Shown here: positions 23,344 to 24,644 of the stretch, piece by piece
Numbering within the stretch: the stretch's first letter is position 1
Layout of the letters: each line of letters begins with the position of its first letter
Origin: a virus
Length of the DNA stretch: 24,779 nt
UHGV virus genome: UHGV-0038615
Direction: 5' to 3' (one strand)
Program-made: the position numbers and the translations under genes
The notes under the pieces: generated by a model
What the model was told of the DNA's origin: nothing
Databases searched by the model: none
The model's input: the letters and a program-made list of their open reading frames with translations, nothing else

Positions 23344-23615
23344 GCAACTTTTAGATCAGTTATGTTAAGTACATTTCCGTCGGCAAAGTGCCAGGAGCGG
23401 GTTCTAGAGAGTGACTAACGTTAGTTATATGTGTAAAATTCCTTAAAAATAAGAAGGATATATATCCATGACAGCAATTGCATATTGGATTAACTGAGAA
23501 TCAATTGAGAAATTTTTGGGGGGGCAAAAAATAAACTAGCTAATTAAATTTTTATAAATAACGAATATAAGACTGCAAGCCATTTAACAAAAGTTTATAA
23601 ATAAAGGAGTCAGTT

Positions 23616-24467
23616 TTGAACAATATCCCCATATCTACTCAATGGACTTTAGACGCTACGGGTGAAGTTGGACGCTCATCAGTAAATTCTGTTTATATGA
23701 TTATATGTCCTGCGACAGGCTCGAAAGGATCTGGTTTTTTAATAGATAATGGGTTAATAGTAACGAACGAGCATGTTATCACTGGATGCTCTACAAATCA
23801 GATTTTCGCAATTTCAGCTTATGGACAGAAGATTCCAATTTCTCAAAAATGGATAGATTCTGATCGCGATTTAGCTGTGCTGAGACCTGCCATTACCCAG
23901 ACTGGTGGGCTAAGTATTGTTAAGGATAATGATCTTAAAGTTGGTGAATCAGTAACAACTTGGGGATACCCATTAGGATACAACGGTCCTGCACCGTTAC
24001 TATCCGTTGGTTATCTAGCAGGATTTAACTCATACCAAACCGCCAAGGGACAAAAAAAACATCTAGTGGTAAATGGGGCATTTAACTCAGGAAATTCTGG
24101 TGGAGCTCTTTTAAAAGCTTCAGATAATAAAGTAATAGGTATTGTAGTGAGTAAGCATGCTCCTATCAGTCAATACCATCAATCAGCTATTGAAGCTTTG
24201 TCTGAAAATATGAGTGGCGTCACCTATACCGCTACTAATGACGCTGGAGAAACTAAAAGTTTTGTAGAATCTCAAATTGTAGCAGAATTATTGATTCATA
24301 TGAGAAGTCTAACTCAAGTTATGATTGGAGAAGCAATTGCAGCAGAGGAATTACTTTCGATGCTTAGCGAAATTGACTTGAGTCCACCACAATCTATGTC
24401 AAGAAATGCCTTATGTCATTGCGGGAGTGGAAAACGCTTCAAAGAATGTCATGGAAAGATATCCTAG
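23616..24467 (+). CDS. Trypsin-like (S1/chymotrypsin-fold) serine protease with C-terminal SEC-C-type metal-binding motif, 283 aa; TTG start
   Basis: Catalytic triad candidates in canonical order: His in TNEHV, Asp in DRDLAVL, Ser in GNSGGAL; C-terminus CHCGSGKRFKECHGK; AAGGAG 7 nt upstream of TTG; AT-rich by eye. Confidence 0.7.
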   Translation: MNNIPISTQWTLDATGEVGRSSVNSVYMIICPATGSKGSGFLIDNGLIVTNEHVITGCSTNQIFAISAYGQKIPISQKWIDSDRDLAVLRPAITQTGGLSIVKDNDLKVGESVTTWGYPLGYNGPAPLLSVGYLAGFNSYQTAKGQKKHLVVNGAFNSGNSGGALLKASDNKVIGIVVSKHAPISQYHQSAIEALSENMSGVTYTATNDAGETKSFVESQIVAELLIHMRSLTQVMIGEAIAAEELLSMLSEIDLSPPQSMSRNALCHCGSGKRFKECHGKIS

Positions 24468-24612
24468 TAAGTACTTATATCAGTCTGATAATGGCTCTTC
24501 CAATACAAAAGACTTCACTTACTCTGCCGTCATCTCTGCTCCTCGCTTATTGCAGACGGTCAAAAGCTTACAAGCTGTTGACTAGATGTGTTCTTACATT
24601 GTCAGTTAAAAC

Positions 24613-24639
24613 AAAAGCCCCGCAAATGCGGGGCTTTTT
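24613..24639 (+). terminator. Rho-independent terminator, second copy of the ogr-type hairpin (agccccgc-aaat-gcggggct then TTTTT)
   Basis: Identical to 23317-23343 except one loop base; lies about 145 nt after the protease stop and just before the att arm. Confidence 0.6.
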
Positions 24640-24644
24640 GTATC

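Follow-up and report, generated by a model that had tools for sequence, protein, structure and literature searches.

A trypsin-like protease gene inserted between two terminator copies at the right end of a P2-like prophage

The DNA considered here, the 24,779-nt virus genome UHGV-0038615 (the whole of which is called the window), contains an entire P2-like prophage of E. coli that runs from a near-perfect attL core at 55-81 to an exact 27-bp P2-type core at 24706-24732. At the right end the order is gpD (21844-23007), ogr (23089-23309), a hairpin with a U-run, AT-rich DNA, a second hairpin and the att arm. The AT-rich DNA carries one gene, for a trypsin-like serine protease that ends in a SecA-type zinc motif (SEC-C), and our concern is with this gene, the place it occupies and what it may do. 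The phage is P2-like and not P2 itself, with a D/ogr region about 79-83% identical to phages of the 186/PSP3/ENT4 type.

The insertion between ogr and attR

The left border of the slot is ogr (+ strand), the gene for the late-gene zinc-finger activator. It is present in the list of open reading frames (ORFs), is called a DNA-binding transcriptional regulator at the identical locus in RefSeq, and aligns with ogr and ogrK of relatives in which the site is empty. Two terminators lie beyond it on the same strand. The first, T1 (23318-23344), has the stem AAAGCCCCGC/GCGGGGCTTT, the loop GAAT and then a U-run; from its folding and its equivalence to the annotated P2 ogr terminator, it is the native intrinsic terminator of ogr. 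The second, T2 (24614-24640), has the loop AAAT, which is also the loop allele of the single terminator in the empty-site strain T-HYM1, and we read it as ending the cargo gene and shielding the att arm. The two copies constitute a 27-nt direct repeat with 26/27 positions identical, the sole mismatch being G/A in the loop, and with a spacing of 1,296 bp. In both, the hairpin is followed by U5. The folding energies are -21.5 kcal/mol for T1 (z -5.7) and -20.8 kcal/mol for T2 (z -5.2), and none of 200 shuffles (0/200) was as stable as the native sequence. An earlier, sequence-only reading of this DNA had described two near-identical hairpins with one loop mismatch; the pair stands, and its coordinates, which were one base off, become those given here. 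Next to T2 is attR (24643-24732, +), identified by alignment to the annotated P2 attP. It comprises the Int P-arm sites (ATGTGGTCAATGTGTGGACA), the IHF region and the 27-bp core, whose match is exact.

Some 1.27 kb of AT-rich DNA separates T1 from T2. The GC content over 23300-24700 is 0.28-0.41 vs. 0.55-0.64 in the phage late genes (200-nt windows), or, as a single figure for comparison, about 57%, and together with the positions of the repeat this agrees with the AT-rich insertion of about 1.3 kb proposed earlier. In T-HYM1 and in the ogrK remnant of K-12, the ogr stop codon, a single terminator and TATCGATGTGGTCAATGTGTGGACA are all contiguous, and the contiguous layout of ogr stop, terminator and arm is found in about 1,125 complete E. 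coli genomes. In the reference annotation of P2, the ogr terminator (24265-24288) is followed after a gap of 4 nt by the Int P arm (24293-24320), and then by the IHF region and the attP core. The P-arm motif of P2-like prophages is ATGTGGTCAATG(T/A)GTGGAC, and the right junction of the window aligns base for base with the terminator/P-arm/attP region of the P2 reference. That the terminator abuts the att arm in P2, as the sequence-only reading had it, is thus supported by the P2 annotation as well as by the empty-site relatives. Judged by these alignments, the AT-rich block between ogr and the attR P arm is an insertion. We conclude so because the empty-site relatives and P2 carry one terminator directly beside the arm, and not from composition alone.

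The site of integration can also be told. The 3′ part of the CyaR (RyeE) small RNA (24709-24779, minus strand; Rfam 80 bits; the window ends within the gene) overlaps the P2-type att core at 24706-24732. The prophage is therefore in the cyaR terminator beside yegQ, the same site as that of the K-12 ogrK remnant. Searching the AT-rich flanks for non-coding RNA with Rfam gave only terminator-driven noise and the neighboring CyaR.

Apart from the gene, the block has three parts. A conserved AT-rich region (23393-23615, +) lies upstream of the gene and moves with it, as the Klebsiella locus matches it at 87% identity and keeps long blocks of it unchanged; it is the presumed promoter region and includes the Shine-Dalgarno sequence AAGGAG. 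The 48 bp to the left of it (23345-23392) are not common to the Klebsiella copy of the module, since BLAST homology to Klebsiella michiganensis begins at 23393. Past the gene, 146 bp of non-coding DNA (24468-24613) show no homology to the Klebsiella locus and belong only to the present prophage lineage, matching 35 E. coli genomes and no others. The D/ogr allele and the right-hand flank are confined to the same 35 genomes, an indication that the module was acquired once, by one lineage of the prophage.

What occupies the position varies among relatives. The slot is empty in T-HYM1, K-12 ogrK, S42, OkiPb and P2, the empty ones including relatives integrated near pflB, and it holds other cargo in strains EC11 and KV7, both with a prophage at the same yegQ/cyaR site. 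In EC11 an unrelated AT-rich insert of 740 bp lies between two terminators, 3521-3546 (lineage-type) and 4288-4313, and the arm follows (locus L103); the insert has an 86-aa minus-strand ORF that belongs to no Pfam family. In KV7 there is a 69-aa ORF, a terminator at 3927-3952, a degraded group II intron directly after it, and then the arm (L102 3511-5880). Insertion directly after a terminator is the behavior reported for class C group II introns. On this comparative evidence the ogr-att junction is a minor cargo slot in related prophages. The right-hand terminator has the loop AAAT in the window and in EC11, as in T-HYM1, and the left-hand copy is the resident allele of the lineage, so the two look like alleles joined by recombination between P2-like genomes. 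We infer that the terminator pair arose in this way rather than by a fresh target-site duplication. It is plausible that the cargo was gained via recombination at the terminator, and the idea is strengthened because EC11 holds unrelated cargo in the same two-terminator layout. Such a layout would leave ogr terminated, provide the cargo gene with a terminator, and shield the Int/IHF arm from read-through.

P2-like phages are known to keep defense genes in variable slots (PMC9122126, PMC9519451, PMC13586616, 10.1101/2024.10.15.618418). Published maps name as hotspots gpA-portal, Z/fun, int-att and int-primase, together with a broad ‘tail protein to CI' interval; they single out neither the ogr-P arm junction nor the terminator duplication (PMC13586616, 10.1101/2024.10.15.618418). 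The present block resembles the lysogenic-conversion cargo of P2 (old, tin, Z/fun) and the hotspot systems in being AT-rich foreign DNA between conserved P2-like core features, with alternative cargo in relatives. It differs in position: the classical hotspots are gpA-portal and Z/fun, whereas the ogr-att slot is inside the third hotspot, ‘tail protein to CI' (10.1101/2024.10.15.618418).

The protease and its relatives

The sole plausible ORF of the block (23616-24467, +) begins with a TTG codon 7 nt downstream of AAGGAG and encodes 283 aa. The product is WP_001059829.1, named ‘trypsin-like peptidase domain-containing protein' in RefSeq, and the assignment draws on the ORF list, Pfam, RefSeq, alignment and an AlphaFold model. 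Pfam recognizes Trypsin_2 at residues 38-176 (E 1e-19; 72 bits, cut-off 27.6) and SEC-C (PF02810) at residues 263-281 (24402-24458, +; 30.4 bits, cut-off 20.4). The latter has the ligands C267, C269, C278 and H279, and the C-terminal CxCxSG...C[H/C] motif of SEC-C proteins is present as CHCGSGKRFKECH at residues 267-279. The catalytic residues H53 (codon 23772-23774), D85 (23868-23870) and S161 (24096-24098), and the GNSGG oxyanion loop, are invariant across an alignment of 101 homologues. The AlphaFold (AF2) model made from this alignment (pLDDT 88, pTM 0.81) has a helix at the N-terminus (6-25), then the protease with its two barrels (26-178), next a small alpha/beta domain (186-252) and finally the zinc tail. 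The fold match of the protease domain is Deg/HtrA. The alpha/beta domain (24171-24371, +) is specific to the family, contains the near-invariant motif LTQVMIGEAI, and showed no relationship to any solved fold; a search of a viral structure library returned generic trypsin-fold matches only. The N-terminus, MNNIPISTQWTLDATGEVGRSS, is without a hydrophobic segment and is predicted to form an amphipathic helix. Going by sequence and model, the product is a catalytically complete cytoplasmic serine protease of the S1C (HtrA-like) type. A single gene with the His/Asp/Ser triad complete and in chymotrypsin-fold order had been read from the letters alone, and Pfam, the homologue alignment and the fold match concur; the SecA-type zinc motif claimed for the C-terminus scores above the PF02810 cut-off, and structure prediction did find a protease fold.

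The reading frame is intact and 99.9-100% conserved across the 35 E. coli genomes, and dN/dS is 0.12-0.18 among the E. coli, Klebsiella and Yersinia copies. These comparisons show the gene to be intact and under purifying selection; its low GC content and the empty-site relatives show it to be foreign. The TTG start and GGAG are kept in E. coli, Klebsiella, Yersinia, Microbulbifer and Vibrio (starts at 23616; L004 8001; L014 7001; L007 8001; L008 8001) despite saturated synonymous sites. Retention of a weak start suggests selection for low translation, and fits a product that is dose-sensitive. The block does not have the makeup of a toxin-antitoxin pair: there is no ORF of at least 30 aa in 23345-23615 and no plausible one downstream of the gene.

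A word-indexed search yielded 912 relatives at E < 1e-5, the top 120 being 53-100% identical over about 90-100% of the length. When one genome per species was scanned, relatives were encoded in 104 of 185,579 species (about 0.06%). They are found in Gammaproteobacteria, many Acidobacteriota, Chloroflexota, Planctomycetota, Chlamydiota, Bacteroidota and CPR bacteria, and in the archaea Nitrosocosmicus, Pacearchaeota, Iainarchaeum, Methanosarcinales and Methanobacterium, the archaeal and CPR members being 36-58% identical. The sequence-only reading had considered that homologues might be ordinary conserved housekeeping genes outside mobile elements; the family is instead sporadic. Among 5,426 complete E. 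coli genomes, 37 (0.7%) carry the module, always on the chromosome, and the carriers are mostly human or clinical, several with strain names such as NDM3-6, 5CRE51 and ESBL. The SEC-C tail is restricted to the closest members (roughly >=65% identity), other relatives ending just past the C-terminal domain; it was seen in 8 of 86 surveyed loci, all of them gammaproteobacterial.

The E. coli and Klebsiella copies are 87% identical in DNA from 23393 to the stop codon, and the mobile unit is therefore the gene and about 220 bp upstream of it, with nothing downstream. In K. michiganensis a lambdoid prophage has the homologue at its end, with umuDC and a gene for a TIR-domain protein next to it. The latter (L004/L005 10824-11606) is a ThsB-like protein of 260 aa located ~2 kb from the protease, with umuDC between, and the three make up a small accessory cluster, perhaps one with a defense role. 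The gene is inside a P22/lambda-like prophage, on the opposite strand, in Yersinia artesiana, and at the end of a Mu-like prophage in a metagenomic enterobacterial contig. In Vibrio parahaemolyticus, it adjoins the integrase of a P2/186-like prophage in one context and lies in the chromosomal superintegron in another, where attC-type repeats (L008 7856-7984 and 8854-8980) flank a single ORF (8001-8861). A cassette origin was considered for the E. coli copy and rejected: there is no attC-like sequence or homology past the stop codon, the flanks being the terminator copies and the 220-bp upstream region. In one metagenome contig the homologue adjoins an IS91 transposase gene. In another, of 700 kb, a homologue without SEC-C (58% identical) is between a lone cas1 and a family-B DNA polymerase gene (L018 5196-12453), a pairing that resembles a casposon.

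To survey the neighbors, 1,003 ORFs within 6 kb of the 86 loci, each from a different species, were clustered. No conserved partner gene emerged, the commonest neighbor family being present in only 4/86 loci. The gene therefore travels, and presumably works, alone. Taken together, the sequence contexts show a protease that moves as a single gene between mobile elements. The block in the window is best explained as a self-contained accessory module, horizontally acquired, consisting of one gene with the AT-rich region upstream of it and a terminator behind.

Comparison with known systems and possible function

The protease family is uncharacterized, rare and widely transferred, the cargo slot has previously gone unremarked, and no named system fits. 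The sequence-only reading had not recognized the combination of protease and SEC-C as a named defense or toxin family, and nor do the databases: matches in PADLOC, NCBIfam and PHROGs are limited to the generic protease domain or to the zinc motif of 20 residues, and they lead to no named defense or toxin family. The family was not found in the literature on P2 hotspots, on functional selection in E. coli, on metagenomic selection, on the screening of integron cassettes, or in a 132-system survey. Uzume, considered as a possible protease system, was dropped on finding it listed as GIY-YIG in a 2024 survey. The domain combination is new, and the gene is best classed as belonging to a known general kind, the prophage- or integron-borne accessory gene with a protease effector.

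The closest fold is that of HtrA, DegP, DegQ and DegS (MEROPS S1C), with which the protein shares a chymotrypsin-fold domain and an ordered His-Asp-Ser triad. There are differences as well. A C-terminal domain without relationship to any solved fold stands where a PDZ domain would be, the N-terminus has neither a signal peptide nor a membrane anchor, hence the cytoplasmic location, and all the NCBIfam HtrA/Deg models score far under their cut-offs. The HtrA/Deg proteins, moreover, are encoded by conserved envelope housekeeping genes, whereas the present gene is sporadic and mobile.

Trypsin-like proteases serve as effectors or activators in variants of Hachiman, AVAST, Lamassu and DRT (PMC12799240), and the best PADLOC matches are to such proteins: RT-Protease_XI (7e-21), and also PDC-M35A, LmuA, HamA and Avs1b. 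According to Tuck et al. (2026), the trypsin-like domains matched by PADLOC are partners of metallo-beta-lactamase (MBL) pronucleases (PMC12799240). The proteases of these nuclease-protease pairs (HamMAB Hachiman, Avs1, LmuA, DRT class XI) are likewise cytoplasmic and trypsin-like, but they are fused to a sensor enzyme and the gene for an MBL-fold pronuclease is always immediately upstream (PMC12799240). Here the protease is free-standing, its 283 aa showing only Trypsin_2 and SEC-C, with no sensor fusion. An MBL pronuclease/protease pair was accordingly rejected: it is ogr that lies upstream, an MBL gene is lacking, no neighbor recurs in more than 4 of the 86 loci, and the Vibrio cassette has a single gene. 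Lit, encoded by the e14 prophage, and other single-protein abortive-infection proteases are alike in being prophage-borne, single-gene and cytoplasmic. The logic could be shared as well, by analogy, the enzyme staying latent until infection and then cleaving a host translation factor. Lit, however, is a zinc metalloprotease with no relationship in sequence or fold to the protease here. The zinc motif has its own precedents. Rugutis, a single-gene lactococcal defense, carries a SEC-C motif (PMC11381338), and PADLOC models of SEC-C-tailed E2 proteins match residues 257-282 of the protease, so that in each case a SecA-type zinc motif is on a defense-associated protein. In Rugutis, however, the motif is N-terminal and the remainder is an unrelated novel fold with no protease (PMC11381338).

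We put forward, as a hypothesis, a defense or toxin role for the gene. In its specific form, the product would be a self-contained protease, its expression in the lysogen driven by the upstream sequence of the gene itself, that acts as a one-protein anti-phage effector of the abortive-infection or exclusion type; we hold this reading tentatively, granting it a shade under an even chance. In DegS and DegP, gating is the work of PDZ domains. By analogy, the family-specific C-terminal domain (about 70 residues) that stands in their place here is the best candidate for a latch or a trigger sensor that would keep the protease latent. The metal-binding domain of SecA coordinates Zn/Fe and binds SecB and ribosomes, by the outline given in 10.1101/613315. 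By the same token, the SEC-C tail might dock the enzyme on SecB or the ribosome, near unfolded or nascent chains. On activation it would cut proteins that are nascent or unfolded, or else a factor of translation or secretion, and thereby halt phage growth. A bolder version makes the protein the founding member of an unrecognized family of one-protein immune proteases, exchanged between bacteria and archaea, with a novel C-terminal sensor gating the protease, in the gammaproteobacterial branch a SecA tail that holds it at SecB or the ribosomal exit so that infection would set off the cutting of nascent or secretory proteins, and the ogr terminator as a reusable docking point for cargo. We regard this fuller version as rather doubtful.

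Several observations weigh against the anti-phage reading. The PADLOC matches are no stronger than the generic HtrA/MarP ones and cover the protease domain only. The SEC-C tail is an add-on, and not the core mechanism, because it is restricted to one gammaproteobacterial branch. The sigma-70-like matches in the upstream region (23411-23439 and 23505-23532) are weak, no better than chance. No homologue was found in 50,697 phage records and 72,556 plasmid records, and only 7 of 2.9 million IMG/VR contigs had one. Finally, the immediate neighbors (149 proteins, examined with Pfam and PADLOC) represent 122 Pfam families, many of them housekeeping; the defense- or mobility-like ones are three integrases and a few AbiEii, PARIS-like and restriction-modification genes. 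Enrichment in defense islands outside gammaproteobacteria was rejected on this heterogeneous and largely housekeeping set. The association with prophage ends that the sequence-only reading had proposed to look for holds in gammaproteobacteria, where the mobile-element signal is strong; for the whole family, an association with defense islands is not established.

The protease could instead be beneficial to the host in ways other than immunity, as a cytoplasmic quality-control enzyme whose SEC-C tail joins it to SecB or the ribosome and which clears stalled or mislocalized secretory precursors under stress. The role is the classical one of HtrA-type proteases, and the fold match is to Deg/HtrA. 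SEC-C domains are present in YecA and YchJ, and the accounts in 10.1101/2020.07.21.215244 and 10.1101/613315 tie them to Sec-dependent translocation and stress. Many distant homologues are among housekeeping genes, and integron cassettes carry many non-defense functions. Against these stand the extremely sporadic occurrence (in E. coli 0.7% of genomes, and overall about 0.06% of species, as noted above), the lack of synteny, and the location of the gammaproteobacterial copies in cassettes and at the ends of prophages; that a weak start codon is conserved also suggests an enzyme that is dangerous rather than helpful. We consider quality control unlikely. In favor of the anti-phage reading, integron cassettes are also reservoirs of compact defense genes, as stated in a review (PMC13434031, citing Darracq 2025 and Kieffer 2025).

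The gene might serve the prophage in counter-defense or competition, its product cutting either immune proteins of the host or, in rival phages, repressors or structural proteins. It adjoins the att site, the usual place of lysogenic-conversion genes, it occurs in at least four unrelated prophage types, and proteolysis is a simple means against protein-based defenses. The same gene, however, is also a chromosomal integron cassette, and in most taxa it is in non-phage contexts, in which service to a phage would be hard to understand; it is absent from the sequenced phage isolates searched (0 copies) and still present in a prophage copy without tail genes. Such a role appears quite unlikely. Least of all do we expect a selfish or neutral passenger, be it a toxic hitch-hiker or a decaying remnant, without adaptive function in the lysogen. 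Its rarity and limitation in E. coli to one clonal prophage lineage, its AT-rich and likely silenced DNA, and the want of an evident partner or regulator would suit a passenger, but the frame that is intact and nearly unchanged in 35 genomes, the low dN/dS across genera and the catalytic residues invariant across phyla make one very improbable.

Other features of the prophage and implications

The prophage has further features of note. At a junction near 17845 (16658-17966), ~3.8 kb are absent from the window that are present in every complete-genome copy of the prophage, none of which shows the junction. Gene I is truncated and fused to the 3′ end of the sheath gene, and the missing part takes in the tail-fiber genes H and G, most of FI and the Z/fun slot. 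Either the source prophage has undergone a deletion that leaves it unable to make tails, or the assembly is collapsed. The gpA-portal hotspot (6521-9264, +) contains a two-gene candidate defense system: a 542-aa AAA_15/AAA_21/DUF3696 ATPase (PADLOC NsnB 5e-55, PDC-M55A 8e-46, AriA 7e-31) and a protein of 370 aa that matches nothing in Pfam and PDC-M55B weakly. As the seat of a partner for the protease elsewhere in the prophage the hotspot was rejected, having the ATPase and the protein without known family and no nuclease partner. A gene for a DUF3850/ASCH-domain protein (5484-5984, +) directly follows replication gene A; it is conserved backbone and not cargo, because the P2 reference has the same feature (Orf91, DUF3850).

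In closing, the slot and the family merit attention apart from what the protease does. When P2-like prophages are mined, the ogr-att junction deserves a place among the slots considered, and its two-terminator layout is a way for a small phage to take cargo beside att with the ogr transcript and the Int/IHF arm insulated. The spread of the family, thin and wide, from E. coli to DPANN archaea at >50% identity, makes a clean case of gene traffic between domains. If the gene is truly one of defense, a very compact system (283 aa, one gene) would join the short list of protease-based immunity, with a catalytic logic that is easily dissected. It would give the first functional context for a C-terminal domain seen nowhere else, and a concrete role for SEC-C tails, which recur on defense-associated proteins without explanation. 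Since the carriers are mostly human or clinical, a phage-resistance phenotype, if any, could bear on phage therapy.

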